A DNA stretch of 42,034 nucleotides from Candidatus Pacearchaeota archaeon. Lineage in GTDB: Archaea; Nanobdellota; Nanobdellia; Pacearchaeales; GW2011-AR1. Made by a program: the position numbers and the translations under genes. Below, piece after piece: positions 12,807 through 28,058 of this stretch (positions within the stretch are counted from its first letter, which is position 1; each line of letters opens with the position of its first letter). The notes under the pieces are model-generated. The model was given only the letters and a program-made list of their open reading frames with translations. It was not told the origin of the DNA and did not search any database. Where the stretch lies: the NCBI GenBank assembly GCA_017609695.1, contig JAFCDM010000016.1, positions 1 through 42,034 on the forward strand, in the 5' to 3' direction.

Positions 12807-12817
12807 TTTAATATGAG

Positions 12818-13035: not shown

Positions 13036-13127
13036 AAATATGTAAGAATTTAAAGTATATAAAAGCTTCTTTTTTTGTGAAAAGAAAAAACTGAATTTTA
13101 TATTAAGTTTATTAAAAATTTTTATTA

Positions 13128-13404: not shown

Positions 13405-13437
13405 ATTAAATTAAATAATAAATGGTTTTTAAATATT

Positions 13438-13469
13438 TTGTAGACAAAAATATAGAAAGATTTAAATAT
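13438..13469 (+). promoter_or_regulatory. 32-bp promoter module (TTGTAGACA box plus BRE/TATA AGAAAGATTTAAATA), copy 1, upstream of fic
   Basis: ttgtagacaaaaatatagaaagatttaaatat is identical to 19421-19452. Confidence 0.7.
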
Positions 13470-13511
13470 GTAGACAACTATTATAATATATGTAGACAAC
13501 TATTATAATAT
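13468..13511. repeat. Perfect 22-bp tandem duplication (atgtagacaactattataatat x2) abutting the fic start
   Basis: 13468-13489 is identical to 13490-13511. Each unit has ATG-TAG and a TTATAATAT TATA-like box. The fic ATG is at 13513. Confidence 0.95.
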
Positions 13512-13512
13512 T

Positions 13513-14451: not shown

Positions 14452-14456
14452 TCTTT

Positions 14457-14518
14457 TTGTAGACATATTTGTAGACAATTTATTTATTGTAGACAAAGTA
14501 ATCCCCTTAATTGTCTAA
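14457..14518. repeat. Cluster of TTGTAGACA(A/T) boxes downstream of fic (three direct, one partial inverted)
   Basis: Direct boxes at 14457-14466, 14469-14478 and 14487-14496. Inverted ttgtctaa at 14511-14518. Confidence 0.85.
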
Positions 14519-14620
14519 ATGCCTTTGTTGTTACTTAATCTTAAAGTTTAAATTAAAAATAACTTCAAACCTCCTTGAAGTCTTCGCTGGGTTTATAAAG
14601 AATGTTTTTTTATAAAAATT

Positions 14621-17032
14621 ATGAATGAGGATAATAAGAAAATGACAGATGATAAATTTATCTTAATGGGATTAAACGACGAGAAGTCAGAGTATATAGC
14701 TGAGGTTTTAAAAAATAAAACTGCTAAAAAAATTTTAGATTTTTTAGGGGATATAAAAGAAGCAAGTGAAAAAGATATTTCAGATGCATTAAAAATGCCT
14801 ATGAGTACTGCTGAGTATAATTTAAAAAAATTAATTAAAAGTGGGTTTGTTGAAAAAACAAAGAATTTTTTTTGGAGTGTTAAGGGAAAGAAAATACCAA
14901 TGTATAAATTAGCAAAAAAACATATTATAATTAGTCCAAATAAAAAGCCAAATCTAAATTATATTAAAAGTCTTCTTCCAATTTTTATTGTTGCTATAGC
15001 CTTAGTGGCTATAGTAGCAGTATTTATGTTACAAGAGGAACCTATTGTTGATCAAACTGAGTTAAAACAATTTGGTTCTCAAGCAGATTTAAATGGATTT
15101 ATAAAAGAAAATTCAGATTCGAATTCAAATTGGGGTGGGGGAATAGGCATATTATCTAAAGGAATGGCTGAAACTGCAACTTTTTCTGAAAGTGATGGAG
15201 GAACTCCTCAAACTAATTCAGATTATTCAACTACAAATATACAAGTTAAAGGAGTAGATGAAGCTGATATTGTTAAAAATGATGGAGAATATATTTATAC
15301 TATTTCAGGAAACAAAGTTATAATTATAGATGCTTATCCTGTAGAAAACTTGGAAATTTTATCAGAAATCAAATTTGAAAGTAATGTTAATGAGATTTTT
15401 ATTAATGATGATAAATTAGTTGTTTTTGGAGGAGATTATGGAAGGGGAAATAAGGTTTATATTTATGATATTTCAGATAGAGAAAATCCTGAACTAGATA
15501 ATGAAATTGAGTTTGATGGAAATTATGTTAGTTCAAGAATGATTGGGAATTATGTTTATACTATTTCAAATAAGTATATCCAAGATAATAACCCAGAGCC
15601 TCCAATTTATGAGGTTGATGGAGTTAAAACAAAAGTTGCTGCTACTGAGGTTTATTATTGGCACTATCCTGATACAAGTTATGTGTTTACAAGTATTACT
15701 GCAATTAATATTAAAGATGGAGATGTTAATAGTGATGTTTATCTAACTGGAGGAAGTAGAAATATTTATGTTTCTCAAGATAATATTTATTTAACTTATA
15801 CTAAATATGTTAGTCATACAGAATATTCTGAAGAAATAGCTAAACAAGTTTATTTTCCTTTGCTCCCTAAAACTTATGATAAAAAGATTCAAAAGGTTTT
15901 AGATTCTAAAGATGCAGATTGGAAAAAGTTAAATGAAATGAGGGAGATAATAGATGAATATTCAATAGGATTAGATGGAGGAGAATTATCTGAATTTAGT
16001 GAAGAACTTGCAGAAAGATTAGAAAAGTTTGAATTAGAAATCCAGAAAAAACAAGAAAACACAATTGTTCATAAAATCAATGTTGATAAAATGGATATTG
16101 ATTATAAAGGAAATGGAGAAGTTCCAGGGCATATTTTAAATCAGTTTTCAATGGATGAATACAATGGGGATTTTAGAATTGCTACAACAACAGGGAATGG
16201 AAGATTTGGAGGAAATAGTTTAAACCATCTTTATATTTTAAATGAAGATTTAGAGATTATAGGAAAAGTTGAAGATTTAGCTAAAGGTGAAAGTATTTAT
16301 TCTGTTAGATTTATGGGTAAGCGAGCTTATATTGTTACTTTTAAAAAAATAGACCCTTTATTTGTAATAGATGTTGAGAATCCTGAAGAACCAAAAGTTT
16401 TAGGTTATTTGAAAATTACAGGTTATTCTGATTATTTACATCCTTATGATGAAAATCACATAATTGGAATTGGAAAGGAAACTGCTGGAGGGGAGGAAGA
16501 TTTTTCTTGGTATCAAGGTGTTAAAGTTTCATTATTTGATGTTACTGATGTTGAAAATCCAATTGAAAAATCTAAGATTGAAATAGGAGATAGGGGAACA
16601 AATAGTGAGGCATTACATAATCATAAAGCTGTTTTATTTGATAAAGAAAAGAATTTATTAGTTATTCCGATTAGCTTGGCTGAAGTTGATGAAAGTAAGT
16701 ATGATGGAGGAGAAATCCCTGATAATGCCTATGGGAAACAGATTTGGCAAGGAGCTTTTGTTTTAGATATTAGTTTAGATGGGATTGAAGAAAGAGGGAG
16801 AATTACCCATAATAATGAAACTCCTGAAGAAAATGGATATGGGTATAGATATTTTGATTATAATAAAGCAATTCAAAGAAGTTTGTATATAGGGGATGTT
16901 CTATATACTATCTCTCAGAGTATAATAAAAGCAAATGAGCTTGATAGTGTTGATGAGATTAATTCATTAGATTTAGGATATAATGATAATTATAATGATA
17001 ATTATCCAATTGGTATTGAGGAGAGGGTTTAA
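14621..17032 (+). CDS. HTH - TM - extracellular beta-propeller domain protein (COG4880/PF09826-like)
   Basis: N-terminal wHTH (ILDFLGDIKEASEKDISDALKMPMSTAEYNLKKLIKSGFV). One TM (LLPIFIVAIALVAIVAVFML). NIQVKGVDEADIVKNDGEYIYT is typical of the secreted beta-propeller family. Confidence 0.75.
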   Translation: MNEDNKKMTDDKFILMGLNDEKSEYIAEVLKNKTAKKILDFLGDIKEASEKDISDALKMPMSTAEYNLKKLIKSGFVEKTKNFFWSVKGKKIPMYKLAKKHIIISPNKKPNLNYIKSLLPIFIVAIALVAIVAVFMLQEEPIVDQTELKQFGSQADLNGFIKENSDSNSNWGGGIGILSKGMAETATFSESDGGTPQTNSDYSTTNIQVKGVDEADIVKNDGEYIYTISGNKVIIIDAYPVENLEILSEIKFESNVNEIFINDDKLVVFGGDYGRGNKVYIYDISDRENPELDNEIEFDGNYVSSRMIGNYVYTISNKYIQDNNPEPPIYEVDGVKTKVAATEVYYWHYPDTSYVFTSITAINIKDGDVNSDVYLTGGSRNIYVSQDNIYLTYTKYVSHTEYSEEIAKQVYFPLLPKTYDKKIQKVLDSKDADWKKLNEMREIIDEYSIGLDGGELSEFSEELAERLEKFELEIQKKQENTIVHKINVDKMDIDYKGNGEVPGHILNQFSMDEYNGDFRIATTTGNGRFGGNSLNHLYILNEDLEIIGKVEDLAKGESIYSVRFMGKRAYIVTFKKIDPLFVIDVENPEEPKVLGYLKITGYSDYLHPYDENHIIGIGKETAGGEEDFSWYQGVKVSLFDVTDVENPIEKSKIEIGDRGTNSEALHNHKAVLFDKEKNLLVIPISLAEVDESKYDGGEIPDNAYGKQIWQGAFVLDISLDGIEERGRITHNNETPEENGYGYRYFDYNKAIQRSLYIGDVLYTISQSIIKANELDSVDEINSLDLGYNDNYNDNYPIGIEERV

Positions 17033-17259
17033 TTGAAATTGAATTTCTTGTAAGTCCCTTTATTTTTGTGTATGTTACTTGTTATTGTGTAAGGCTATTT
17101 TATTTAACTTTGAGATTTTGCTAGGAATTAAATTAAAAATTTATCTTTTCTTCATTTCTTCAACTTGTTTTTCAATTTCCTTTATATCTTTATCTGATTC
17201 CTTTTTTATTTTTTCTTTAGATTCTTTTTTTACTAATTCATTAATTTCTTTTAAAAAAT

Positions 17260-17537
17260 TATCCTGAGATAACTAATATTCGAGAGCATAATACTAGGGA
17301 TGCAGACATAACATTTAATATTGATTCAAAAAAGTTCGCAATTGAAATTGAAACTGGGAGCCTTTTAAGAAAAAAGAAGCAGTTACTTGAAAAAATCAAT
17401 TTTTTAAAAAGAAGATACAAAAAAGATGGATAATTCTTGTTTCTAATAGGGATTCTTTAAAAGACTACAAGAAATTTGGGTTGTGCACTCAGAGAAAAGA
17501 CATGATAAAAAACCTAGAAAAATTGATAAAAATCTAA
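17260..17537 (+). pseudogene. 5'-truncated and frameshifted PD-(D/E)xK nuclease-like gene remnant
   Basis: Frame 1 reads YPEITNIREHNTRDADITFNIDSKKFAIEIETGS...RRYKKDG*. It continues in another frame as WIILVSNRDSLKDYKKFGLCTQRKDMIKNLEKLIKI*. There is no start codon. It resembles the C-terminal nuclease module of the 36839-37894 protein. Confidence 0.55.
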
Positions 17538-17614
17538 CACCCGACTTTGAGTGGGTGTGAAATCCTTTTGTCGCCGGATTAGGTATTGAAAAAGAGCGGA
17601 AAATGATGCGCTGT

Positions 17615-17634
17615 ATATATGTATATACATATAT
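17615..17634. promoter_or_regulatory. Perfect 20-nt palindrome ATATATGTATATACATATAT, 63 nt upstream of the AlbA_2 gene
   Basis: The sequence is its own reverse complement. Possible operator. Confidence 0.5.
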
Positions 17635-17696
17635 TACTAAGGAGTAATATAAATAAAAAAGGTAATTTTTTATAATGCTAAATATTAAATAATCTA

Positions 17697-19010
17697 ATGA
17701 AAAATAAAATCAACGATTTAATTAAAACAGGTGAAGGATATAATTTAGAATTCAAAGAGAAAATTGGTTCTAACTTAGATAAAGAAATTTGTGCCTTTGC
17801 CAATGCTAATGGTGGAAAAATTATTTTAGGGGTTGAAAATTCAGGGAATGTTATCGGCTTTAAACTTTCTAATTCAAGTGCTTCAAAAATTCAGAGTATT
17901 GCGAGAAATATGGATCCTAATTTCAATGTAGATATTGAAACAATTGAAAACATGGCAGTCATTAATATTGAAGAAGGAAAAAATAAACCATATTCTGTTG
18001 GAGGAAAATTTTATTTAAGGATAGGAGCGAATTCACAACAAATGCAAAGAGATGAAATAAGAGAATTTTTTCAAAAAGAAGGACTGGTCTTATTTGATGA
18101 AAAACCAAATACAAAATTTGATTTAGATAAAGATTTTAACATGACTAGTTTTAAGGAATTTTTAAGGTTGGCAAATATCACGGATAATCAGGACCATAAG
18201 AGCATTTTAAAAAATCTTTCTCTGATGGAGGGAAGAAAAATGAAAAATGCTGGAGTTATATTTTTTTGTAAAAATGTAAGGAAATTCTTTTTACAGGGTG
18301 ATGTGACTTGCGTACTTTATGAAGGAACCTCAAAAACTAATATAATTGACCACAAAATGTTTGAGAAAAATCTCTTGTCTAATTTTGAAAATGCTTATAA
18401 ATATATTTTATCAAAACTGAATACTAATTATATTATTAAACAAAAAAGAACAGAAAAACTTGAACTTCCAAAAGAAGCAATTAGGGAGGCATTAATTAAT
18501 GCCATTGTTCATAGAGATTATTTTTCTGCGGGGCATGTTCAAGTAGATATATTTATTGATAGACTTGAAATAAGTAATCCTGGAGGCTTAGTATCTGGAT
18601 TAAGTGAAGAGGATTTTGGTAAAGTAAGTTTACCTAGAAATCCTCTATTAATGGATTTAATGTTAAGGGCAAATAATGTGGAAAGAGTTGGATCTGGGAT
18701 TAAAAGAATTAAAGATGCAATGAAAGAATATGGTTTAAGGGTAGAATTTATCAAAACCAAATTTTTCAGAGTTGTTTTTAAAAGGAAAACATTAATCCCG
18801 AAAGGTTCGGAGAAAAGTTCGGAGAAAAGTTCGGAGAAAATTATTGAATTAATGGAGAAAAATAACGAAATAACAATCTTAGAATTATCGAAAGAAATTG
18901 TTTTAAGTACAAGAGCCATTGAAAAAAGCATAGCAAAATTAAAAGAAAAAGGGTTAATCAAAAGAGTTGGTTCTGCAAAGGGAGGATATTGGAAGGTCTT
19001 AAAGAATTAA
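17697..19010 (+). CDS. AlbA_2 (Schlafen-like) DNA-binding domain / HATPase_c_4 / C-terminal wHTH protein (RecG-like putative regulator)
   Basis: N-terminus GEGYNLEFKEKIG...ICAFANANGGKIILGV. Central REALINAIVHRDYFSAGHVQVDIF.DRLEISNPGGL. C-terminal wHTH. The 12-nt unit gttcggagaaaa occurs 3 times at 18805-18840, encoding SEKS repeats. Confidence 0.8.
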   Translation: MKNKINDLIKTGEGYNLEFKEKIGSNLDKEICAFANANGGKIILGVENSGNVIGFKLSNSSASKIQSIARNMDPNFNVDIETIENMAVINIEEGKNKPYSVGGKFYLRIGANSQQMQRDEIREFFQKEGLVLFDEKPNTKFDLDKDFNMTSFKEFLRLANITDNQDHKSILKNLSLMEGRKMKNAGVIFFCKNVRKFFLQGDVTCVLYEGTSKTNIIDHKMFEKNLLSNFENAYKYILSKLNTNYIIKQKRTEKLELPKEAIREALINAIVHRDYFSAGHVQVDIFIDRLEISNPGGLVSGLSEEDFGKVSLPRNPLLMDLMLRANNVERVGSGIKRIKDAMKEYGLRVEFIKTKFFRVVFKRKTLIPKGSEKSSEKSSEKIIELMEKNNEITILELSKEIVLSTRAIEKSIAKLKEKGLIKRVGSAKGGYWKVLKN

Positions 19011-19019
19011 TGCACGAAG

Positions 19020-19050
19020 TACTAAACGCTATTTGCGTTTAGTAGTTTTT
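19020..19050 (+). terminator. Hairpin plus T-tract after the AlbA_2 gene
   Basis: tactaaacgc-tattt-gcgtttagta (10-bp stem) followed by gttttt. Confidence 0.6.
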
Positions 19051-19088
19051 AAGATTTATAAGTATTTGTGAGATTATTGGATATAAAA

Positions 19089-19388
19089 ATGGGGCAAAAA
19101 ACTAAACAAACTTATGTAAGAGAACTTCAAGAAATAAAGAGATTATTAAAAAAGGCGTTTAGGGAAAAAAGAAGTATTAAAATTAAATATTATAGCTTAT
19201 CTTCTGAGGAAGTTAGATACAGGGTAGTTGATATTTATCAAATGCACAAAGATTGTATAATCGCTTTTTGCCATTTAAGAGATGATGAAAGGACTTTTGT
19301 TATTGATAGAATTCATCAAGCAAGATTACTGGATGAAAATTATGAGATACCTAAGGATTGGAGTCCTGAGAGCATTATACTAAATTAA
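19089..19388 (+). CDS. Small standalone WYL-domain-like protein
   Basis: IKIKYYSLSSEEVRYRVVDIYQMHKDCIIAFCHLRDDERTFVIDRIHQARLL fits the WYL pattern (R.F.ldRI). ORF opens at GTG 19068; first ATG is 19089. Confidence 0.55.
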   Translation: MGQKTKQTYVRELQEIKRLLKKAFREKRSIKIKYYSLSSEEVRYRVVDIYQMHKDCIIAFCHLRDDERTFVIDRIHQARLLDENYEIPKDWSPESIILN

Positions 19389-19420
19389 AAAGTTCTCTTT
19401 AAATAAATAAAAGTTACGAG

Positions 19421-19452
19421 TTGTAGACAAAAATATAGAAAGATTTAAATAT
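19421..19452 (+). promoter_or_regulatory. 32-bp promoter module, copy 2, upstream of the antitoxin/toxin pair
   Basis: Identical to 13438-13469. Followed by two copies of the 17-nt unit taataaaagcttataaa with a 20-nt period (19452-19468 and 19472-19488), then ATG 19496. Confidence 0.7.
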
Positions 19453-19495
19453 AATAAAAGCTTATAAAAAGTAATAAAAGCTTATAAATTAAAAA

Positions 19496-19738
19496 ATGGC
19501 TCAGAATATTTTTGAAGTAGGAGAAAGAGAAAATAGAGTTCTTGGTATTGTTAAAGCTAAATATGGGCTAAAAAATAAAAATCAGGCTTTCAATTTAGTT
19601 ATTGAAGCTTTTGAACAAGAACTTCTTGAACCAGGAATAAAACCTGAATATTTAGAGAAATTAAAAAAAATTGATAAAGAAAAAGGAATAGTTTTTAAGG
19701 ATATCGAAGAATTAAAAGCTATCTTAGAATCAAAATAA
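19496..19738 (+). CDS. Putative antitoxin (small DNA-binding protein upstream of the RelE-like toxin)
   Basis: 80-aa ORF ending 22 nt before the toxin gene. Assignment is mainly by position. Confidence 0.55.
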   Translation: MAQNIFEVGERENRVLGIVKAKYGLKNKNQAFNLVIEAFEQELLEPGIKPEYLEKLKKIDKEKGIVFKDIEELKAILESK

Positions 19739-19760
19739 TTTCTAGATAAAAAAGAGGAAA

Positions 19761-20030
19761 ATGGATTATGAAATAAAACCAACTCTAAAGAGAACACTTA
19801 ATAAGATTTCTAAGAAAAATTTTCTAATGTATGAAAGAATCTTAAAAAAGATTCAAGAAGTAATTAACTCCAAGATAGACCATTATAAAAATTTAAGGCA
19901 TGATTTAAAGGAATTTAAAGGAGTTCAGGTTGGTTCTTTTGTTCTTGTTTTTAAATTTGTAAAATCAGAAAATAAAATATATTTTGAAGATTTTGATCAT
20001 CATGATAAAATTTATAATAAAAGTTTTTAG
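19761..20030 (+). CDS. RelE/ParE-superfamily toxin
   Basis: 89 aa. KRTLNKISKKN...LKKIQEV...LKEFKGVQVGSFVLVFKF..ENKIYFEDFDHHDKIY matches the RelE/YafQ layout. Confidence 0.65.
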   Translation: MDYEIKPTLKRTLNKISKKNFLMYERILKKIQEVINSKIDHYKNLRHDLKEFKGVQVGSFVLVFKFVKSENKIYFEDFDHHDKIYNKSF

Positions 20031-20076
20031 TAGAAAATAAGAAATAATCTTATTATGAACCTTAAGTTAAGTGCCC

Positions 20077-20115
20077 CGAAAGGGCTGAATCCTTGACCAA
20101 CTAGACGACAGGGGC
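20077..20115 (-). tRNA. tRNA-Glu(UUC)-like 5' half (nt 1-37 only; no 3' half present)
   Basis: Minus strand reads GCCCCTG-TC-GTCT-AGTTGGTCAA-GGAT-T-CAGCC-CTTTCG, then GGGCACTTAACTTAAGG. No GGCTG 3' anticodon-stem strand, T-arm or CAGGGGC acceptor 3' strand follows. Confidence 0.5.
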
Positions 20116-21030
20116 AAATTTATTTAATTTATTCAAATGACGCCGGTTTTTAAAGCTTATTGTTTTAATATATTTATTAATATCAGTTTTATTTCCAATA
20201 TAAGTATCGGCTCCTCTTGTTTTTTGAATATTCCATTTTGAGGTTTTAAAACCCAAAGTTTTCATGGCTTTTTTAAATGTATTTCTTAAATTTTCTATAT
20301 TACAAGTAAACCATATATATGGATAATCTCTTCCAGTTATGGGACAGACAGAACCGTCTGTGTCAATTAACCCCCTTATACAAGCTTTTAAATAATCTTC
20401 AGATTCAAAAATCCAATTAGGTATTTTTACATTATTTTTTTTCTTATTTCCAGAGGGAAGCCCAAAATGTTTAAGGGTAAAAATAACATCTTTATTCCCA
20501 ATTACAATAAATAATTCTCTGTTTGTTTTATGTTTTTTAGAGTACATTTTTACATTAAATAACTTCTCAACCAAAGGTTTAACATAATCCAATAAATATT
20601 CTTTATCTTTTTCACTATCCCCACAAATTCTAAGATAATAATATCCTCCTTTTTTGCACCATATGTTTCCATCTCCTAAAATTATTCCAATTAATTCTGC
20701 AAGCTCTTTTGACGGCTGTTTTATTAATAATTTTGGATTTCTAAAATTTGCTAATTTTCCCCCCTTAACTCTCCCCCAATTCTCTTCTAATATATTAACT
20801 ATATGTTTATCAAAATTGATATCTGATAATTTAGATAATTTATTGTATACTTGTCTGCTAATAGTTCTTTTTTCATTAGCAAGTTCATTAACAAGATAAT
20901 TACTAACCACTCCAATTTCTCTTCCTAATTTTTCCCAAGTAAAACTATTTTTATTTTTGACTAGGAGGATTAGCTTTCTTTGATAACCTTTTTTTAACCT
21001 TATCCTCATAAAATAAAAGAAGAATTGCAA
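20101..21030 (-). CDS. HTH + double-motif LAGLIDADG homing-endonuclease-like protein
   Basis: Motifs LIGIILGDGNI and IRGLIDTDGSV. The last 5 codons (GCC CCT GTC GTC TAG) are the first 15 nt of the tRNA-Glu-like half. Probable start is at MRIRLKKGYQ. Confidence 0.8.
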   Translation of the reverse strand: MQFFFYFMRIRLKKGYQRKLILLVKNKNSFTWEKLGREIGVVSNYLVNELANEKRTISRQVYNKLSKLSDINFDKHIVNILEENWGRVKGGKLANFRNPKLLIKQPSKELAELIGIILGDGNIWCKKGGYYYLRICGDSEKDKEYLLDYVKPLVEKLFNVKMYSKKHKTNRELFIVIGNKDVIFTLKHFGLPSGNKKKNNVKIPNWIFESEDYLKACIRGLIDTDGSVCPITGRDYPYIWFTCNIENLRNTFKKAMKTLGFKTSKWNIQKTRGADTYIGNKTDINKYIKTISFKNRRHLNKLNKFAPVV

Positions 21031-21087
21031 GTTTATAAATTTTATGCTTGGTAACTAGACTATATAATTAAAATTTGGAACAGAATC

Positions 21088-21510
21088 TTACTCAAGTATC
21101 CAAGTTTGGATAATGATAACAGCTATTGCAATAATACTAATGATTCCTTTTATTGCATCAAAAACAGGATTTTGTATTTGGATTTTTAATAAAGGAAGAC
21201 TAAATAAGATAGCAATGAATCCAATTATGGCTGTGGTTAAATGAGTAAAATTATTTGAAGTTAATTTTTTTGAAAGGGATTTTAAGGTTTTGATTCTTGC
21301 TTCAATTATTAATCCTAATCCAATAACCAATAACCATAAAGATTCTATATAATTTCCAATATCTTGGTTTAATATTGTTTTACTGGCAATTCCTAAAAAA
21401 CCAAGTATGCTAACTATAGACAAAGCGATTACAAACTTTTGAGAAACCTTTACTTTTCTCTCAGTTGTTTGCACTTCTTTAACTTGTTTTTTCTTTACCC
21501 CTTTTTTCAT
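21088..21510 (-). CDS. Small membrane protein (3-4 TM)
   Basis: 140-aa ORF with hydrophobic segments FVIALSIVSILGFLGIA, LWLLVIGLGLII, AIIGFIAILFSLPLL and IISIIAIAVIIIQTWIL. Confidence 0.6.
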   Translation of the reverse strand: MKKGVKKKQVKEVQTTERKVKVSQKFVIALSIVSILGFLGIASKTILNQDIGNYIESLWLLVIGLGLIIEARIKTLKSLSKKLTSNNFTHLTTAIIGFIAILFSLPLLKIQIQNPVFDAIKGIISIIAIAVIIIQTWILE

Positions 21511-21547
21511 TAAATAAAAAAGATAATTAGGTTTTTAAATATTTTGA

Positions 21548-21571
21548 AAGATAGTGAATGAGCCCACCAGG
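21548..21571. repeat. Direct copy of the tRNA-Ile 3' end plus trailer (24 nt, perfect)
   Basis: aagatagtgaatgagcccaccagg is identical to 21865-21888, which covers the 3' T-stem strand, the acceptor 3' strand, the discriminator and 11 nt of trailer of the intact tRNA. Confidence 0.9.
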
Positions 21572-21736
21572 TCCTAGACAATTCTTTTAGAATTCTCTGG
21601 AACCATCAAAAATGATAAACATTTTTGTGGCCACAAAAACCATAAAAGTTTTTGATGGCTTCAATTCTCTTTTTGATAACGAATTGAAGTATTTGAACCT
21701 GATACACTGGAACAAATCCAGGCATATCCTCTTTTA

Positions 21737-21758
21737 GGATATGAAATGAGCCCACTGG
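21737..21758. repeat. Degenerate third copy of the tRNA-Ile 3' end plus trailer
   Basis: ggatatgaaatgagcccactgg compared with gatagtgaatgagcccaccagg. A T-arm fragment, gtatttgaacctgatac, lies at about 21700-21716. Confidence 0.7.
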
Positions 21759-21875
21759 CTCAAGCTTTCAATTCTTTATTTATTTTTTTAAGATTGTAAA
21801 TTAAAAACTTTCGGAATTTGATACCTGCGGTTCAAATCTCTATTAGAATAATAACACTATCTAGAAGATAGTGAA

Positions 21876-21951
21876 TGAGCCCACCAGGATTTGAACCTGG
21901 GACCCCTGCCTTATAAGAGCAGTGCTCTAGACCAGACTGAGCTATGGGCTC
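21876..21951 (-). tRNA. tRNA-Ile (anticodon UAU)
   Basis: GAGCCCA/TGGGCTC acceptor stem, GCTC..GAGC D-stem, anticodon arm CTGCT-CTTATAA-GGCAG, T-arm CCAGG-TTCAAAT-CCTGG. 76 nt; no encoded CCA. Confidence 0.9.
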
Positions 21952-22021
21952 ATATAATCTCAATATAATATGTATATTTAAAGTTAATTATTTTTATTAA
22001 TAGATAAATCTTTCTTTAAAA

Positions 22022-22590
22022 ATGATAATTGGGTTAACAGGGAGGATTGCTTCTGGAAAAGGAGAAATTAAAGATTTTTTAGAAAAAAAGGGTTTAAATA
22101 TTGCACTATATCTCAAGTTATTAGGGAAGAAGCCTTAAAAAGGGGGATTGAGATTAAAAGAGAAAATCTTCAGGATTTAGGAAATGAAATTAGAAATATA
22201 GAAGGAACAAATGCTTGGATAAAAAGACTTATTGCGACAATTGATTTAAATGAAAATGTCATTATTGATGGGATAAGAAATCCTGGGGAAGTCGAAGAAT
22301 TAAAAAAAATAAAAAATTTCTTTTTAATTGCTGTTGATGCCCCACAAGAGAAAAGATATGAAAGGGTGAGAATGAGAACAAAACCTAGCGACCCTAAAAC
22401 TTGGGAAGAATTTCTAGAAATAGATAAAAGGGATTTTGGTGAAGCAGATTTAAAAGGACAACAGGTTTGTAAATGTATGGAAATGGCGGATTTTTATATT
22501 TTTAATAATTCCAGCATAAAAATACTCCTAAAAAGAATTGAAGAACTTTACTCTGAAATTTTAAAGAAACAAGAAAATTTTCAACTCTAA
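22022..22590 (+). pseudogene. Dephospho-CoA-kinase-like / nucleotide kinase P-loop protein, interrupted by a -1 frame break in an A7 run
   Basis: MIIGLTGRIASGKGEIKDFLEKK (frame 1, stop at 22136). It continues in the -1 frame as GFKYCTISQVIREEALKRGIEIKRENLQDLGNE...IIDGIRNPGEVEEL...QL*. The break is at gaaaaaaag, 22082-22090. Confidence 0.75.
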
Positions 22591-23214
22591 CTAATTTTTC
22601 ATATATCTCTTTTCCCATCCTGTCATATAATAATCTGGAATAGTAATTTTTTTTATCTTTTTTGTTTTTTTCTTTATATATCTTCTTAAAAATAAACCAA
22701 ATAAAAGTCCAACCCCCATTCCTGCTAAATGAGCGATATTCCCAACATTGCTCGGCATAAAGATTCCTAAAATATCCCCGATAACCCAAAGAATTGCAGC
22801 AATAAACATAGGCAAAATTAAACCAAAAGCCCACACCATCATCAAAGGTTTTATAATTGTTAAACATCCAATAATCCCCATGATTGCTCCACTAGCTCCT
22901 AATGAGGAAGGATAAAAATAAATACTGATTACATTTGCAAGAATTCCACTTGCAAAAAAGATAATTAAAAATCTTTTACTTCCAATTAATTTTTCTAAAG
23001 CAACACCAAAGAAAAATAATGCAAATAAATTATAAAGTAAGTGGGTTGTTCCCCCATGCAAAAAAATAGAACTTATATATCTCCAAAATTCTCCTTGAAA
23101 AACCATCTCATTTAAAACAAAAAACTCTGTAAATCCAGGAATAAAAATCTGTAAAATAAAAATCAAAATTATTAATAAACATAATTTTAATGAATAAAAT
23201 TTAATCTTTTTCAT
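22591..23214 (-). CDS. Rhomboid-family intramembrane serine protease
   Basis: GASGAIMGIIG (catalytic Ser) and AHLAGMGVGLLFG (catalytic His) in a 6-TM protein. Confidence 0.85.
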   Translation of the reverse strand: MKKIKFYSLKLCLLIILIFILQIFIPGFTEFFVLNEMVFQGEFWRYISSIFLHGGTTHLLYNLFALFFFGVALEKLIGSKRFLIIFFASGILANVISIYFYPSSLGASGAIMGIIGCLTIIKPLMMVWAFGLILPMFIAAILWVIGDILGIFMPSNVGNIAHLAGMGVGLLFGLFLRRYIKKKTKKIKKITIPDYYMTGWEKRYMKN

Positions 23215-23264
23215 GAGTGTTTAAAGATAATAATGCTTATTAAGTTTAATGATTTATTTTATTA

Positions 23265-23528
23265 ATGGGAAACTTATTAGATAAAACAGAATTGCCAAGT
23301 GTAGGAGAACTTGAAAGAAGAATTAATTTGATTCCAATTGTATTAAATAATGTTGAAAAACTTCAAGAATATTTAAAAAGCCTTCATAGACCACAACTTG
23401 CTACTTCTTTAGTTTATGTTTCTAATCAATTAAGTTCAGATTTACAAGCCTATGAAGCTGCCTTAGTAGATCCTTCTGATTACAAAGAAGCTGATGAGGT
23501 GGATGTTCCTGAAGAAAAAAACCATTAA
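23265..23528 (+). CDS. Hypothetical protein
   Basis: 87-aa ORF with no motif recognised. Confidence 0.45.
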   Translation: MGNLLDKTELPSVGELERRINLIPIVLNNVEKLQEYLKSLHRPQLATSLVYVSNQLSSDLQAYEAALVDPSDYKEADEVDVPEEKNH

Positions 23529-23736
23529 TTTTAAAAACCCTTTATCATACATTATATGACAATGAAAGTTAAATTTAGGGGGTCGCCCCATCACTAGAAA
23601 ACAAGATTTTTCTAGCTTAGCTTTTAATAATTCTACAAAAAATCTTTTAGATAACAACACTTTTATATACTTAAAATTTCAGGATAGTTTAATCGATAGT
23701 ACAAAAACTTATAAACTAAGGTGTTTTAGATTATTA

Positions 23737-24840
23737 ATGAATAAGAGGGTTAATTTTTTTAAAGGTTACCAGAAAAAATTTATAAATGATTTTAAAAAAC
23801 AATTTAATTTTAGTTGGAATGAATTTGCTAAAAAATTAAAAATAAATTCAAATACCTTAAGTAAATCTTATATGTTTGAACTATGTGATATTCCTTATGA
23901 TATTTTTAAGAAAATTATTAAGATAAGTAATAAAAGTGAAGAAGAGATCCTCAAAAAATACTATGCTAAAATAAAAGAAGAATCCTTAATTATTGGTAGA
24001 AAATGTTTTGGGGAACAAAGAAAAATTTTATATCCGATTAAAATATCTTTTAAAAATAAAAATTTAAAATTAGATACATCACAGATTAATTATAGTAAAT
24101 TTGATATAATCAAGAAAATAAAATTCCCTCGTAAATTAACTCCTGCATTAGCTGAGGAAATAGGAATGCAATTTGGAGATGGGTTCTTATCTGCAAAGAG
24201 ATATGATTATAGATTAAAGGGAAATCCAAAAGATGAAAAAGAATATTATAAAAATTATATAAAACCTTTATTTAAGAAATTATATAATCTAGATTTAAAT
24301 TTAAAAGAATCTTATAAAAGTTTTGGGTTTGAGTTATATTCTCAGGCTTTATGGGAATTTAAAACAAAGGTAATCGGAATAAAGCCTGGAAGAAAAGAAA
24401 AAATATCAATTCCTTCTACTTTAAAAGTTAATGATGAAAAAATTTTATGCTCATTTATAAGGGGTTTATTTGATACTGATGGATCTTTGTGTTTTAAAAC
24501 AAAATATGGATATGAAAGTTATTATCCTGAAATTGGAATTTCTTTAATATCAAAACATTTAATTAAAGAAGTTGGGGAGATATTAAAAATGTTAGGATTT
24601 AATCCTGGAATATATTTTAATAATAAATATGGAAGAATTTCCATATATGGAATAAATGCACTTAAAAAGTATGAAAACCTTATAGGTTGGAGTAGTCAAA
24701 AAAATTTAAAAAGACTAAATGACTGGAAAAAAAGATACCCTCAATTAAACAATATGGCGATTGTAGTTAAGTGGCAGAACACGCGGTTGTGGTCCGTGAG
24801 ACCCGAGTTCGATTCTCGGCTTTCGCTTTTAGGTTATTAA
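23737..24840 (+). CDS. HTH + double-motif LAGLIDADG homing-endonuclease-like protein (paralog of 20101-21030)
   Basis: Motifs LAEEIGMQFGDGFL and IRGLFDTDGSL. The N-terminus FFKGYQKKFI..F.W resembles that of the paralog. The open frame runs through the whole tRNA-His gene, so the true C-terminus is uncertain. Confidence 0.75.
   Translation: MNKRVNFFKGYQKKFINDFKKQFNFSWNEFAKKLKINSNTLSKSYMFELCDIPYDIFKKIIKISNKSEEEILKKYYAKIKEESLIIGRKCFGEQRKILYPIKISFKNKNLKLDTSQINYSKFDIIKKIKFPRKLTPALAEEIGMQFGDGFLSAKRYDYRLKGNPKDEKEYYKNYIKPLFKKLYNLDLNLKESYKSFGFELYSQALWEFKTKVIGIKPGRKEKISIPSTLKVNDEKILCSFIRGLFDTDGSLCFKTKYGYESYYPEIGISLISKHLIKEVGEILKMLGFNPGIYFNNKYGRISIYGINALKKYENLIGWSSQKNLKRLNDWKKRYPQLNNMAIVVKWQNTRLWSVRPEFDSRLSLLGY
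24756..24827 (+). tRNA. tRNA-His (anticodon GUG) with encoded G-1; acceptor stem has two U-U mismatches
   Basis: G-1, acceptor GCGATTG...CTTTCGC, anticodon arm CGCGG-TTGTGGT-CCGTG, T-arm CCGAG-TTCGATT-CTCGG, discriminator T. Pairs 5-68 and 6-67 are U-U. Confidence 0.65.
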
Positions 24841-24855
24841 AAAAAGGAGGATAAA

Positions 24856-25866
24856 ATGAAAGAAAATCAAGGGGAAGTTGAAAGAAGAATACCATCAGGT
24901 TGTTTTGTTAAAGGCTTTAGAGATATTAAAGCTGAAAAAAGAACAGCAATAAAAAATATAATTGAATCTATATTTAAGAGTTATAATTTTCAGTCATTTG
25001 AAACACCTATAATAGAATATGAAGAATTTGTTAAAGGCAATAATCAAAATGATGAAGCTATAAGCGATATATTTAAATTACAAGATAAAGGCAAAAGAAA
25101 ACTTGCTTTAAGGTATGAATTTACTTTTCAATTAAAAAGACTGGCTAAAAATAAAAAACTACCTTTTAAAAGATATCAAATTGGCTCTGTTTTTAGGGAT
25201 GAACCAATAACAAGTGGAAGATTTAGACAATTTACACAATGTGATGTTGATGTTGTAGGCTCCACCATTAAGGATGAAGCAGAAATCTTAAAAATTGTTT
25301 CAGAAATCTTTAATAAACTAAATATTAAATTCATAATTCAGGTTAATAATAGAAAACTCTTAAATGAAATCTTACAAGAATTAAAAATAAATGAAAAAGA
25401 TAAACTTGATGTTATTAAAGAGATTGATAAATTAGATAAACTTTCTGAAAAAGAAATAAGAAAAAACTTAAGAAAATATAATGCTGAAAAGATTTTATCT
25501 GTATTTAAAAAACCAGAAAAATATTTTGAAAAGTATAATGCATATCAAGAGATAAAAGAATTAAAAAAATATTGTAAAATGTTTGGTGTCAAGATTGTTT
25601 TTCAATCTTCTTTAGCCAGAGGGCTTTCATATTATAATGGGACTGTTTTTGAGGTAAAAACAAAAGAAATTAAAGAAACACTTGCTGGAGGGGGCTCTTA
25701 TCTAATAAATGGAATTCAATCAACCGGAATTGCTTTTGGATTAGATAGATTGGAACTTGTTTCAAATTTAGATATAAAAGAAAAAAAAATCTTAATTATT
25801 TCAATTAATCAAGATAAAAAAGCAATTCAAATAGATTTATTATGGAAAACCAAGAAAAGGGCTTGA
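24856..25866 (+). CDS. hisS: Histidine--tRNA ligase, N-terminal 325-aa part (frame broken near 25834)
   Basis: Class II motifs: KRYQIGSVFRDEPITSGRFRQFTQCDVDVVG, RGLSYYNGTVFE, GGGSY, GIAFGLDRL. AGGAGG SD upstream. Confidence 0.85.
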   Translation: MKENQGEVERRIPSGCFVKGFRDIKAEKRTAIKNIIESIFKSYNFQSFETPIIEYEEFVKGNNQNDEAISDIFKLQDKGKRKLALRYEFTFQLKRLAKNKKLPFKRYQIGSVFRDEPITSGRFRQFTQCDVDVVGSTIKDEAEILKIVSEIFNKLNIKFIIQVNNRKLLNEILQELKINEKDKLDVIKEIDKLDKLSEKEIRKNLRKYNAEKILSVFKKPEKYFEKYNAYQEIKELKKYCKMFGVKIVFQSSLARGLSYYNGTVFEVKTKEIKETLAGGGSYLINGIQSTGIAFGLDRLELVSNLDIKEKKILIISINQDKKAIQIDLLWKTKKRA

Positions 25867-26014
25867 TTATGCAAATTCATATAATATCCCTTATGTTATT
25901 TTTATTGGAGATGAAGAAGTTAAGAAAAAGAAAATAAAATTAAAAAATATGAAATCAGGTAAGGAAAAATTAATTAGTGAAAAATCTTTGGAGAAAGAGA
26001 TTAAAAAATTATAA
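25835..26014 (+). CDS. hisS: Histidine--tRNA ligase C-terminal (anticodon-binding domain) fragment in the +1 frame
   Basis: IYYGKPRKGLDYANSYNIPYVIFIGDEEVKKKKIKLKNMKSGKEKLISEKSLEKEIKKL* is a typical HisRS C-terminus. Confidence 0.7.
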   Translation: MYYGKPRKGLDYANSYNIPYVIFIGDEEVKKKKIKLKNMKSGKEKLISEKSLEKEIKKL

Positions 26015-26024
26015 TCTTTAAAAA

Positions 26025-26279
26025 TTAATCTTTGACAGGCACTAAAAAGCCATAGGCCATGTTTGTTCCATAAGGATGTAAGAATACATTCTGGCTATCA
26101 TGGTCTTTTACGATTGCAAATTCTTTTCTTGCACTTATAATTGAATAACTATCTTTAAGAGAACAAATTAAAAAAGGATTGCCCTTCTCTAGAGCCCTAG
26201 AAAATGCTATTTTAAAAGTTTCAGCATCTCCAATTAATTCTTGAAGACTTTGCATACTAAAAGTCCACGCAATTCCCAT
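26025..26279 (-). CDS. Hypothetical protein
   Basis: 84-aa ORF. Confidence 0.45.
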   Translation of the reverse strand: MGIAWTFSMQSLQELIGDAETFKIAFSRALEKGNPFLICSLKDSYSIISARKEFAIVKDHDSQNVFLHPYGTNMAYGFLVPVKD

Positions 26280-26376
26280 AGAATTAATATTTATCTATTG
26301 TTTAAAAAGATTTATCTAATTAAAAGAATATATTGTTTTTTTAAGTTTCAAAAATTAAACTATCCCTGGATTATAA

Positions 26377-26595
26377 TTATCCCCTAATAAATCTGCCATC
26401 CTCATAAAAAACATGACGACTGATTAAACTCCCATTTTTTGGATTAGGATTTTTTGCACAAGCCCTTGTTTCTCCTAAAGAGACAATTGGCCAATATTCT
26501 TCCCCCACTACTAAGTAATCTCCAAGATTTAAGGTTTCCTGACTAGGCCTAATTTCTCCATCTCCATTGCTATTAAATCTTTTATCCATAATCAA
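26377..26595 (-). CDS. Hypothetical protein
   Basis: 72-aa ORF. Confidence 0.4.
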   Translation of the reverse strand: MIMDKRFNSNGDGEIRPSQETLNLGDYLVVGEEYWPIVSLGETRACAKNPNPKNGSLISRHVFYEDGRFIRG

Positions 26596-26645
26596 AAATA
26601 TCAGATAAACAGGTTTATAAATCTAATTATAATTTATGATATATC

Positions 26646-26759
26646 ATGAAAATACCAAACCCTGGAGAAGTTAGAAAACCAAGCAAGACATTAGCAGGGG
26701 TTACTCCAATAGCTGTGATGTGTAAACCTAAAAAATGTAAGCATGGAACTTGTCTTTAA
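26646..26759 (+). other. elp3: elp3 5' fragment ending at a TAA created by a 33-bp tandem duplication
   Basis: MKIPNPGEVRKPSKTLAGVTPIAVMCKPKKCKHGTCL*, in the same frame as the 26853-28058 ORF. Confidence 0.75.
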
Positions 26760-26791
26760 CCTAAAAAATGTAAGCATGGAACTTGTCTTTA
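26726..26791. repeat. Perfect 33-bp tandem duplication inside elp3
   Basis: acctaaaaaatgtaagcatggaacttgtcttta at 26726-26758 is identical to 26759-26791. The junction creates TAA at 26757-26759. Confidence 0.95.
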
Positions 26792-26852
26792 TTGTCCTTC
26801 TTTAAATGTTCCCCAGTCATATACTCCTAAATCCCCCCCTGTTCTAAGAGCT

Positions 26853-28058
26853 TTGAGATTAAAATATAATGCTTATGAACAAATTAAATCAAGATTAAAA
26901 GCATTTAAGTTAATGAATCATCCAACCCAAAAAATAGAATTAATAATTATGGGTGGAAATTTTTTAGAATATCCAATAAGATACCAAGATGATTTTATAA
27001 AAAAATGTTATGATGCTCTAAATAATAAAGTTTCTAAAACTTTAGAGCAAGCTAAAAAATTAAATGAAAAAGCAAAACATAGATGTGTTGCCTTATGTAT
27101 AGAAACTCGCCCAGATACTTGCACAGAAAAAAACATTAAGAGAATTTTGGATTTTGGATGCACAAGAGTTGAATTAGGGGTTCAGGGTTTAGATGATAAA
27201 ATCTACAAATTTGTGAATAGAGGACACAAAGTTAAGGAAGTTATTGAAGCAACTAAAAGATTAAAAGATTCTGGCTTCAAAGTGGGGTATCATATGATGT
27301 TAGGACTTCCTAAATCTAATTTAAAAAAAGATTTGGAAACTTTTAAAGAATTGTTTTCAAACGAAAATTTTAAACCAGACCAATTAAAAATTTATCCTTG
27401 TCAGGTTATTACTGGAGCACAATTAGTTAGATTATATGAAAAAAAGAAATACAAACCTTATACCAAAGAACAGGTTCAAGAATTGATAATTAAAATTATG
27501 AAACTAATTCCAAATTATTGTAGGGTTATGAGAATTATGAGAGAAATCCCCCCAGAACATTTAGTTGCAGGAATCTTAAGAATAGATTTAAGAAAAGATA
27601 TTGAAGAAGAATTAAAAAAACAAAAAACAAAAATAAAAGAGATTAGATTTCGGGAAATTGGGTTTGCAATAAGAGATTTGAAAAAAGGTGGGAAAATAAA
27701 TGATAAATTAGAATTAAAATTAACAAAATATAAAGCAAGTGATGGAGAAGAATATTTTTTAGAAATTGTTAACAAAGAGAATATTTTATTTGGTTTGTGC
27801 AGGTTAAGGATTTGTGAATCTAAAGGATGGATTAGAGAGCTTCATGTTTATGGGCAGTCTCTAAAAATAGGAGAAAAAGCTAAACAAATAGGACAACATT
27901 CTGGGTTGGGAAAACAATTAATAAAAGAAGCTGAAAAAATTGTTAAAGAGAACGGAATTGGGTTTTTGAAAATTATTTCAGGAGTTGGGGTTAGAGAATA
28001 CTATAGAAAATTAGGTTATAAATTAGATAGGCAAGGCTATATGATTAAAAAAAATTAA
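26853..28058 (+). CDS. elp3: Elp3-type radical-SAM / GNAT tRNA modification enzyme (main ORF; true start is at 26646)
   Basis: The upstream in-frame sequence encodes CKHGTCLYCP (radical-SAM Cys box). Then IELIIMGGNF, CIETRPD, RVELGVQ, and a C-terminal GNAT region (QHSGLGKQLIKEAEKI). Confidence 0.85.
   Translation: MRLKYNAYEQIKSRLKAFKLMNHPTQKIELIIMGGNFLEYPIRYQDDFIKKCYDALNNKVSKTLEQAKKLNEKAKHRCVALCIETRPDTCTEKNIKRILDFGCTRVELGVQGLDDKIYKFVNRGHKVKEVIEATKRLKDSGFKVGYHMMLGLPKSNLKKDLETFKELFSNENFKPDQLKIYPCQVITGAQLVRLYEKKKYKPYTKEQVQELIIKIMKLIPNYCRVMRIMREIPPEHLVAGILRIDLRKDIEEELKKQKTKIKEIRFREIGFAIRDLKKGGKINDKLELKLTKYKASDGEEYFLEIVNKENILFGLCRLRICESKGWIRELHVYGQSLKIGEKAKQIGQHSGLGKQLIKEAEKIVKENGIGFLKIISGVGVREYYRKLGYKLDRQGYMIKKN

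Follow-up and report, generated by a model that had tools for sequence, protein, structure and literature searches.

Why would two paralogous genes on one archaeal contig each run, in the same codon phase, into the first nucleotides of a transfer RNA (tRNA) gene? The question is raised by a 42,034-nucleotide stretch of a Candidatus Pacearchaeota genome (contig JAFCDM010000016.1; hereafter the window), an archaeal contig of 27% GC whose gene homologues are labelled Nanoarchaeota, Pacearchaeota or Woesearchaeota. Here an open reading frame (ORF) that we term ORF A ends within a truncated tRNA-Glu gene, and its paralogue ORF B reads through a tRNA-His gene. A preliminary description of the window suggested a free-standing homing-endonuclease family that inserts at, or travels with, tRNA 5' ends, and that may damage or replace the 5' acceptor strand in doing so. 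Having compared the window with related loci, we think it probable that ORF A and ORF B are the nuclease genes of small homing-type elements, lodged inside tRNA genes and supplying a replacement 5' segment. The anatomy of these loci is well supported by cross-locus comparison; homing, the target site and intron-based immunity we infer.

Two LAGLIDADG paralogues enter tRNA genes in the same phase

ORF A occupies positions 20101–21009 of the reverse strand and encodes a LAGLIDADG endonuclease of the tRNA-Glu-linked clade, 302 amino acids (aa) long from the ATG at 21009 (matching P0001). The mechanically called frame (21030–20101, reverse strand) opens with a TTG at 21030, and the ATG at 21009 is the likely true start. 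The 3' end of the gene reads AAA TTT GCC CCT GTC GTC TAG, where GCC corresponds to nucleotides (nt) 1–3 of a tRNA-Glu(UUC)-like sequence, such that tRNA nt 1–15 provide the final four codons and the TAG stop; nt 1 falls at 20115, not 20116. ORF B, the LAGLIDADG endonuclease gene of the tRNA-His-linked clade (23737–24840, forward strand), reads AAT ATG GCG ATT GTA GTT AAG, where GCG corresponds to nt 1–3 of tRNA-His (nt 1 at 24757), and the phase of entry is identical to that of ORF A. Because nt 13–15 are here AAG instead of TAG, the frame stays open through the entire tRNA-His, whose sequence makes up its final ~28 codons. The tRNA-His(GUG) gene itself (24756–24828, forward strand) has an encoded G-1, which is the G of the ATG in AAT ATG (24756). 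It is one of four tRNAs found in the window with ARAGORN and Rfam, as is tRNA-Ile(UAU) (21875–21952, reverse strand).

The two proteins share 28% identity over ~330 aa (BLASTP, E 4e-20) and both match Pfam LAGLIDADG_3 (PF14528; 35.6 and 29.1 bits, cut-off 22.5), in agreement with the preliminary description of two LAGLIDADG paralogues whose frames run into nt 1 of a tRNA in one and the same phase. The motifs are ..IILGDGN.. and ..LIDTDGS.. in ORF A, and ..MQFGDGF.. and ..LFDTDGS.. in ORF B. Across the family GDG is present in 88/88 members and DTDG in 85/88, one exception being a frameshifted, pseudogenised copy (L010; L numbers are our labels for individual loci). With both catalytic aspartates essentially invariant, proteins of this family look like active nucleases. 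An AlphaFold2 model of ORF A (predicted local distance difference test score 92.9) comprises an N-terminal helical domain of ~75 residues, a disordered linker and a core, for which the top Foldseek matches are I-Tsp061I, PI-PfuI, the Tli VMA intein endonuclease and I-DmoI (target-normalised template-modelling score ~0.7); WhiA and the bI3 maturase are also among the structural matches. The family sequence profile retrieves the same relatives as the structure search, matching Protein Data Bank entries 2DCH and 7QSU (E 2e-5). Two motifs, a profile match and a predicted pseudo-dimeric alpha-beta-beta-alpha-beta-beta-alpha fold together indicate that ORF A and ORF B belong to the monomeric double-motif LAGLIDADG endonucleases.

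The family resides at tRNA genes

Database searches returned 423 relatives for ORF A and 160 for ORF B at 40–83% identity, almost all of them from DPANN archaea. Members of ~205–235 aa constitute a short form, and a long form has the extra ~75-aa N-terminal helical domain. Using an alignment as query we collected 80 genomic loci, three of them from bacteria of the candidate phyla radiation (CPR); a single-protein query found none. Two of the 80 run off their contig, hence 78 are assessable, and in 77 of these a same-strand tRNA lies at or inside the ORF 3' end, as judged by a strict acceptor/T-arm rule, by ARAGORN and, for multi-intron tRNAs, by eye (the strict rule alone places a tRNA at the ORF end in 64/80 loci). 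L039 is the only locus without a tRNA. The proposal of a LAGLIDADG family living at tRNA 5' ends is thereby borne out.

The stop codon coincides with tRNA nt 13–15 in 35 loci by the strict rule (~39 when by-eye readings are included) and with nt 8–10 in nine. Partner tRNAs are Glu, Gln and Asp, with His for the ORF B clade and mainly Ser for the CPR members. C-termini of the types APVV-stop, SPVV-stop and MAVVV run through the roughly 280 homologues listed: APVV-stop or APIV-stop corresponds to GCC CCN GTN GTN TAG (tRNA-Glu), SPVV-stop to AGC CCN GTN GTN TAG (tRNA-Gln), and ..NMAVVV(QWLER..PVA..) is the translation of tRNA-His, GUG anticodon included. Recurring as it does in almost every homologous locus examined, the overlap of ORF and tRNA is not a matter of chance. 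In annotations, ORF B-type genes extend through the whole tRNA-His and beyond (24757–24840 in the window, and many database proteins), and database proteins of 370–460 aa bear tRNA-encoded tails such as ..QWLEREPVALETGVRF...

In a neighbour-joining tree the protein clades follow the partner tRNA (Glu, Gln, Asp or His), with one apparent switch, a Glu(CUC) clade nested among Gln-linked proteins. Several copies are found at different tRNAs in some genomes (L027/L046 and L006/L060). We found no hidden short LAGLIDADG genes between tRNA-Gln and the downstream tRNA-Glu in relatives, and no recombinase domain in ORF A, ORF B or their neighbouring genes. A search of IMG/VR gave distant, generic LAGLIDADG matches only; the family was not found on its viral contigs, and a viral origin was rejected on these grounds. 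The CPR members (L074, L076 and L078; Saccharibacteria, Daviesbacteria and Zambryskibacteria) show 30–34% identity, and each lies immediately upstream of a tRNA gene: for Ser in L074 and L078, and for Arg and then Ser in L076, where an upstream tRNA 5' remnant is present 36 nt before the ATG (p=0.003). They represent either cross-domain transfer or contamination of metagenome-assembled genomes.

A second copy of the tRNA 5' part lies upstream of the gene

Setting the 160–200 nt before each ORF against the first part of its partner tRNA, we found a second, often decayed copy of tRNA nt 1 to ~25/26 at ~35–40 nt upstream of most long-form ORFs. Exact matches reach 27 nt in L005, 22 nt in L021 and L041, 19 nt in L056 and 17 nt in L075, with shuffled controls averaging ~6 nt. 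The copy is significant at p<0.01 in 22/79 loci, and copy ends cluster 33–40 nt before the ATG. It corresponds to the intron-less version of the tRNA and takes in the 3' D-stem strand, ending at nt 25/26 (...GGCCTA GCAT A in L041, ...GGTCAA TCAT in L005, ...GGCCAA GGAT in L004), after which comes an A/T-rich, TATA-like box. When 39 long-form loci are aligned on the ATG, the D-arm remnant GTAGTnTAGTGGTCAA is seen in ~30/39 and a TATA-like hexamer at -38 to -18 in 28/39. The architecture of these loci, from 5' to 3', is tRNA nt 1 to ~26, TATA box, ORF and complete tRNA. In L046 the D-stems differ between the two copies, each being near-consistent in itself (GTAC..GTAG, where 3/4 positions pair, versus GTCT..AGAT), and the copies therefore come from different functional alleles.

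Both window loci have remnants at a distance from the ATG like that seen in other loci. Upstream of ORF A, alignment with the ORF-less tRNA-Glu of L208 reveals TATAGTCTAGTTACCAAGCAT (21044–21064, reverse strand), a decayed copy ('copy 1') of resident tRNA-Glu nt 8–25 that is identical to the L208 sequence (TAGTGTAGTGGCCAAGCAT) at 16/19 nt and ends exactly at nt 25; a TATA-like box, TTTATAAA (21032–21039, reverse strand), ends 22 nt upstream of the ATG. Upstream of ORF B, comparison with homologues points to GGATAGTTTAATCGATAGTACA (23682–23703, forward strand) as the decayed copy 1 of the tRNA-His 5' part, roughly nt 4–25, and the TATA-like box TTATAAA (23709–23715, forward strand) ends 21 nt upstream of the ATG. 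A D-arm-like block akin to GGATAGTTTAATCGATAGTACA, comprising TRGTTTAAWCGGSAGTAC, AAAA and TTTATAAA, is kept upstream of the ORF B homologues in L206, L207 and L209.

Related genomes contain empty sites

Empty sites, which the preliminary description proposed to define by comparison with genomes lacking the ORFs, do occur in related genomes, with an ORF-less tRNA-Glu in L208 and an ORF-less tRNA-His in L210 and L211. L208, a contig of 7.2 kb, shares 98.5% identity with window positions 21088–27619, and its ORF B is 100% identical. The homology stops at the stop codon of a membrane-protein gene (21088). Past that point a spacer and a complete tRNA-Glu(UUC) without any ORF follow in L208; in the window the spacer is diverged, and the remnant, ORF A and the tRNA-Glu half come next. 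The D-arm of the ORF A-linked tRNA-Glu copy (GTCT...GGTCAAGGAT) is of a different type from that of the L208-like remnant. In L210 and L211, whose histidyl-tRNA synthetase (HisRS) is 75% and 73% identical to that of the window, the order rhomboid gene, small ORF, tRNA-His and HisRS gene is retained with ORF B absent. Here a conserved upstream element and the box TTTTTATAC, ~25–30 nt upstream of tRNA-His, stand directly before the tRNA. In the window that element (23555–23630) and the counterpart of the box, TTTTATATAC (23661–23670, forward strand), the presumed original promoter of the resident tRNA-His, stand before the copy-1 remnant instead.

By the comparisons with L208, L210 and L211, the resident tRNA was interrupted after ~nt 25, with presence or absence varying at both the strain and the genus level. 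Polymorphism of this kind at one homologous site is the signature of homing. Insertion at, or travel with, tRNA 5' ends, as first proposed, thus agrees with the adjacency, and needs revision as to the probable insertion point, which would be the junction of D-arm and anticodon arm at ~nt 25–27. The proposed fate of the 5' acceptor strand divides similarly: replacement is supported by the displaced nt 1 to ~25/26 upstream, and damage, in the case of tRNA-His, is not (see section 'The tRNA-His gene and its neighbourhood').

D-loop introns accompany many ORF-linked tRNAs

Many partner tRNAs contain a short insertion right after the D-loop GGYCAA, at ~nt 21/22, which folds into a helix with a flanking 3-nt bulge, as introns of the bulge-helix-bulge (BHB) type should. 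Such D-region introns are present in 25/49 ORF-linked tRNAs versus 3/49 other tRNAs of the same loci (counting those with an intact anticodon arm), and in 18/40 versus 0/9 when only Glu and Gln tRNAs are considered. Moreover, the two tRNA copies are near-identical (at least 18/23 nt) only where the downstream copy has an intron (6/11 vs 0/9, one-sided p ~0.01). An intron, or substitutions in the D-arm, may accordingly protect the rebuilt tRNA gene from the nuclease. Partner tRNAs with two or three introns, located in the T-loop, in the D-loop and at the canonical site, are found in L054, L057, L067, L022 and L034; ARAGORN misses such multi-intron tRNAs or misnames them ('Tyr', 'Leu', 'SeC').

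Proposed mechanism and its alternatives

Anatomically, a locus consists of nt 1 to ~25/26 of the resident tRNA (the acceptor 5' strand and D-arm), which then decay; a TATA-like box about 22–26 nt ahead of the ATG; the gene for a monomeric two-motif LAGLIDADG endonuclease; and a complete tRNA, the first 12 nt of which serve as the final four codons of the ORF and U13-A14-G15 usually as its stop. We propose that the nuclease recognises the uninterrupted cognate tRNA gene and cuts it near the junction of D-arm and anticodon stem. Repair templated by the element-bearing allele would then copy in the promoter and ORF together with the replacement 5' segment. As that segment comes from the element, the host tRNA would remain functional without an intron or intein around the nuclease gene. 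The rebuilt tRNA would evade re-cutting through a short BHB-type D-loop intron, common in relatives, or through a D-arm unlike that of the resident allele, and would be transcribed from a promoter within the ORF 3' end or released from the ORF transcript. ORF B with tRNA-His is then a standard, old insertion, and ORF A a standard insertion whose tRNA-Glu was later truncated.

Several points weigh against this proposal. Cleavage and homing are putative, and the nuclease target site is read from junction positions. The sequence fits two cases, one in which the element brings the 5' segment downstream of the ORF and entered at ~nt 26, and one in which it brings the upstream segment and entered at nt 1. 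The fidelity of clades to tRNAs and the 40–80% identity across phyla would also fit long vertical inheritance. The breakpoint with L208 lies at the stop of the neighbouring gene and not at the element borders, and therefore reflects a larger replacement rather than a clean insertion or excision. The tRNA-Glu portion and tRNA-His of the window have no D-loop intron, so the proposed immunity would here rest on base differences. Short-form members (about 205–235 aa) mostly have no detectable upstream copy. Lastly, the window remnants are too decayed to be significant alone (p=0.1 for ORF A, where the longest exact match is 8 nt, and p=0.9 for ORF B), and are credited by position and comparison.

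The same facts can be read as the mark of a domesticated host protein, that is, a vertically inherited DNA- or RNA-binding factor of LAGLIDADG fold, such as WhiA or the LAGLIDADG maturases, that serves the expression, processing or maintenance of the neighbouring tRNA. The overlap would then be due to genome compaction, and a single ancient event would have left the tRNA-like block upstream. The breadth and good conservation of the family over DPANN phyla (the 423 and 160 matches at 40–83% identity), the tracking of tRNA identity by protein clades, the stable synteny among relatives (tRNA-Ile...ORF A–tRNA-Glu and ORF B–tRNA-His–HisRS), the presence of WhiA and the bI3 maturase among the structural matches and the absence of the family from viral contigs in IMG/VR are all as domestication would have it. 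We nevertheless consider it unlikely, given that both catalytic aspartates are essentially invariant in the family (WhiA, by contrast, lacks conserved catalytic aspartates), that the ORF is missing from a 98.5%-identical strain and from syntenic relatives with perfectly good tRNAs, that some genomes have multiple copies at different tRNAs, that the exact duplicates of 22–27 nt look recent and that one copy, L010, is pseudogenised.

Two further explanations strike us as highly improbable. In one of them the locus is a giant tRNA intron, where the upstream fragment is the true 5' exon and a BHB intron of ~1 kb, ORF included, is removed up to the downstream D-arm. Archaeal LAGLIDADG genes do classically sit in BHB introns, I-Tsp061I and I-DmoI are best structural matches, and in loci that combine an intact upstream copy with a D-loop intron either copy could give the same exon–intron pairing. 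However, the upstream copy often lacks the acceptor strand or cannot pair with the 3' strand (both window loci included) and a complete tRNA stands downstream; the copy also extends to nt 25/26, past the intron position at ~nt 21/22, and the window tRNAs are intron-free. No BHB splice sites bound the ORF, which lies between a 5' fragment that stops at nt ~25/26 and the first nucleotide of the complete tRNA. A group I intron was likewise rejected, there being no Rfam match to one in the window. In the other explanation the tRNA 5' repeat is the attachment-site (att) duplication left by a site-specific recombinase, and the locus an integrase-type integrative element. Direct repeats of a tRNA segment around an insert are a hallmark of such integration (PMC3293823), and the nearby tRNA-Ile of the window has att-like repeats of its 3' end. 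Yet the LAGLIDADG nuclease is the sole gene between the repeats, a recombinase domain was found neither in the ORFs nor in neighbouring genes, and the insert is just ~1 kb long.

The truncated tRNA-Glu gene

The tRNA-Glu(UUC) portion downstream of ORF A ('copy 2'; 20073–20115, reverse strand), delimited by direct reading of the sequence, consists of GCCCCTG TC GTCT AGTTGGTCAA GGAT T CAGCC CTTTCGG GGC and comprises the acceptor 5' strand, the D-arm, the 5' strand of the anticodon stem, the loop CUUUCGG and three more bases. Past ~20073 the tRNA likeness ends in unrelated AT-rich sequence, so that the variable region, T-arm and 3' acceptor strand are absent; neither ARAGORN nor Rfam calls it. 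Scans of the 42-kb window for an acceptor pattern, a T-loop pattern and the two combined revealed no matching T-arm or 3' acceptor strand, and no second tRNA-Glu on the contig. TTTAAAAA (20147–20154, reverse strand), which forms codons F-K-N in the 3'-terminal part of ORF A and spans -39 to -32 relative to tRNA nt 1, is a candidate TATA box for this tRNA-Glu, going by archaeal promoter geometry.

The abnormality of the tRNA-Glu gene is real, as the preliminary description had it for both adjacent tRNAs, and is atypical for the family. Complete tRNAs stand at the position of the half in the closest ORF A relatives (L081–L084, 71–78% identity), which share the synteny tRNA-Ile...ORF...tRNA-Glu with the window, and in essentially all other loci. 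The half is thus an exception within the family and not its typical state. Most likely, a functional tRNA-Glu(UUC) sits elsewhere in the genome and the half arose by a secondary rearrangement in which everything beyond ~nt 41 was lost. Overall we favour such a secondary truncation or rearrangement as the probable origin, and see a slim chance that the half is an assembly join.

It is doubtful that the half is instead a functional split tRNA gene of the Nanoarchaeum type, with its 3' half elsewhere and trans-splicing through a leader that pairs with GGCACUUAACUUAAGG. The tRNA likeness does end just past the anticodon loop, near the 37/38 split site, ORF A is intact, the contig has no other tRNA-Glu, and the canonical split tRNAs of N. 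equitans include those for Glu and His (bioRxiv 10.64898/2026.05.13.725050). On the other side, the window holds no 3' half; a metagenome scan for the trailer complement (TTAAGTTAAGTGCC) gave at least 120 chance matches, none of them beside a tRNA 3' half among the matches listed; and the trailer is AT-rich, not the GC-rich pairing segment of a split gene. In the sister strain and in the closest relatives the gene is complete, and tRNA-Glu is detectable in all 208 complete Nanobdellota genomes (bioRxiv 10.64898/2026.05.13.725050). A contig mis-join, or a recent deletion by the variable island, explains the half equally well.

That island is a strain-variable accessory region which adjoins the half and includes a toxin–antitoxin-like pair, a WYL protein, a Schlafen/AlbA_2 ATPase and a Fic protein. 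Its defence-like cluster directly downstream of the half (17697–20030) encodes a Schlafen/AlbA_2-HATPase_c_4-HTH protein, a WYL-domain protein, a DUF2683 protein and a small RelE-like ORF; a Fic/DOC protein gene lies at 13513–14451. None of the cluster is present within 680 nt after the tRNA-Glu in the sister strain L208. Core genes are back by ~7.6 kb, with no rebuilt tRNA-Glu there. An integrase-mediated island at the half was rejected, as no recombinase was found in window positions 1–20000 and no reconstituted tRNA-Glu by ~7.6 kb.

On the other side of ORF A, at a distance of ~0.5–0.9 kb, the 3' end of tRNA-Ile(UAU), CCTGGTGGGCTCATTCACTATCTT, recurs ~320 nt downstream, with a partial third copy ~130 nt downstream (21545–21900, reverse strand). 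These repeats resemble the att-type direct repeats of elements that integrate at the tRNA-Ile 3' end, and would represent a second, different type of tRNA-targeted insertion.

The tRNA-His gene and its neighbourhood

The tRNA-His gene scores 52.9 bits against the Rfam tRNA model and has the mismatches U5·U68 and U6·U67; the preliminary description noted two acceptor-stem mismatches and suggested that the inserting family may damage the 5' acceptor strand. Both mismatches are kept in four ORF-bearing genomes (L205, L206, L207 and the window), whose tRNA-His genes otherwise covary at pair 4:69, in the T-stem and in the anticodon stem. In L211, where the ORF is absent, tRNA-His has an acceptor stem of identical sequence, GCGATTG/CTTTCGC, which for the His part is the kind of observation that the preliminary description had said would refute its interpretation; U6·U67 is retained in L209 and L210. 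The U·U mismatches are a lineage trait and not damage caused by the ORF. An acceptor-stem intron was also tried as an explanation: its 5' exon (GGCGAAAG) was not found upstream of ORF B, and the idea was dropped since the U·U pairs are conserved.

The conserved element upstream of tRNA-His (23555–23630, forward strand) occurs in both ORF-bearing (L205–L207, L209) and ORF-less (L210, L211) loci. It contains a possible micro-ORF (23562–23597; MKVKFRGSPHH followed by a stop) that largely keeps the motif G-x-[YFS]-P-H(-H) and varies in length mostly by multiples of 3, as well as a GGGGG...CCCC hairpin and pairable flanks, AAAGCTAA and TTAGCTTT. The element could encode a leader peptide or a small RNA. 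Downstream of tRNA-His, the HisRS gene of the window (24856–25866) has a 35-nt deletion relative to the 98%-identical L208 gene (397 aa), and the resulting frameshift ends its ORF at 336 aa, with the end of the anticodon-binding domain running on in another frame; the region affected is 25830–26060. This truncated HisRS is a pseudogene or split gene, or else an assembly error.

Relation to known systems

In the literature searched, we found no description of the family or its architecture in DPANN. The nearest precedent is the tRNA-Thr(GGU) locus of Caldiarchaeum subterraneum described by Sugahara et al. in 2012, where a 5' fragment (nt 1–27) is followed by a 1868-bp insert with an 813-bp ORF and then by the tRNA, which gained an extra intron at 24/25 and lies 1.8 kb downstream of the fragment; SVMProt classed the ORF as a putative recombinase, and the authors interpreted the event as integration of the pNOB8 type (PMC3293823). 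That locus resembles ours in its 5' fragment, its single same-strand ORF directly before a complete tRNA, its intron in the D-arm region and its presence or absence between strains, and its authors likewise suggested a tie to intron gain and to the dispersal of tRNA fragments (PMC3293823). It differs in being a single locus from another phylum, at tRNA-Thr, with a 1.9-kb insert that contains a repeated 545-bp region; by its published description, on which our comparison of the ORF is based, the ORF does not overlap the tRNA. The present family generalises the architecture of this locus to hundreds of loci, at which the gene is identified as a LAGLIDADG endonuclease.

Among proteins, the closest structural matches are the endonucleases of archaeal ribosomal RNA (rRNA) BHB introns (I-DmoI, I-Tsp061I, I-PorI), which have the same monomeric two-motif fold, catalytic aspartates and a stable-RNA target. 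Their genes, however, lie inside a spliced intron, whereas members of the present family lack flanking splice sites, would be harmless through duplication of the target 5' part, and have an extra N-terminal helical domain. Compared with WhiA-like regulators, the family keeps its catalytic aspartates, is variably present and has multiple copies in some genomes. All archaeal group I introns reported to date lie in rRNA (PMC6125680).

Free-standing phage endonucleases provide a parallel in behaviour, as in the collaborative homing of mobE/I-TevIII, and of F-CphI with the psbA intron, and in SegB of the T4 tRNA cluster (PMC2790892, PMC2988022, PMC13096335). There too the nuclease gene adjoins its target, and SegB acts in a tRNA gene region. 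Under collaborative homing the donor is shielded by a separate intron without an ORF, which splits the recognition site; the D-loop intron may play that role here. The phage systems differ in using GIY-YIG or HNH enzymes and group I introns, in residing in phage genomes and in not duplicating any part of the target gene. Elements of the SSV and pNOB8 types similarly insert in a tRNA gene, make good the displaced segment with a copy of their own and leave part of the tRNA repeated at the opposite border, but these depend on tyrosine recombinases, usually replace the tRNA 3' part and span tens of kb, in contrast to the ~1 kb, the lone LAGLIDADG gene and the 5' part seen here. The split tRNAs of Nanoarchaeum equitans (Glu, His, Lys and iMet; bioRxiv 10.64898/2026.05.13.725050) come from a related phylum and affect Glu and His, as here, and the window has a tRNA-Glu 5' portion that ends near the anticodon loop; in our case the 3' half and a GC-rich complementary trailer were not found, and the genes of relatives are intact.

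Implications for archaeal tRNA genes

The origin of non-canonical introns, orphan fragments and split halves in archaeal tRNA genes is a long-standing question, for which mobile elements have been suspected with no agent identified. This family is a concrete, widespread and testable candidate agent, each clade being tied to one tRNA species. It solves the problem of harmless insertion in an unusual way, with a spare 5' piece of the target gene in place of an intron or intein. The co-occurrence of D-loop introns offers a direct experimental handle on the idea that introns protect tRNA genes from mobile DNA, and the enzymes would be new tRNA-gene-specific meganucleases. Annotation of DPANN and CPR genomes is systematically affected, since ORFs are called through tRNAs and intron-rich adjacent tRNAs are missed.

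More broadly, we raise as a tentative idea, one that we would not bet on, that LAGLIDADG elements could be a general engine of tRNA-gene disruption in Archaea. Their nuclease would cut uninterrupted tRNA genes, and they would spread together with an immunising D-loop BHB intron, as collaborative homing with a protein-spliced intron; displaced 5' fragments and occasional mis-repair would seed intron gain, orphan fragments and split genes, with the Glu and His splits of Nanoarchaeum and the Glu half of the window as end-products. The family may thus explain intron gain and fragmentation of archaeal tRNA genes.

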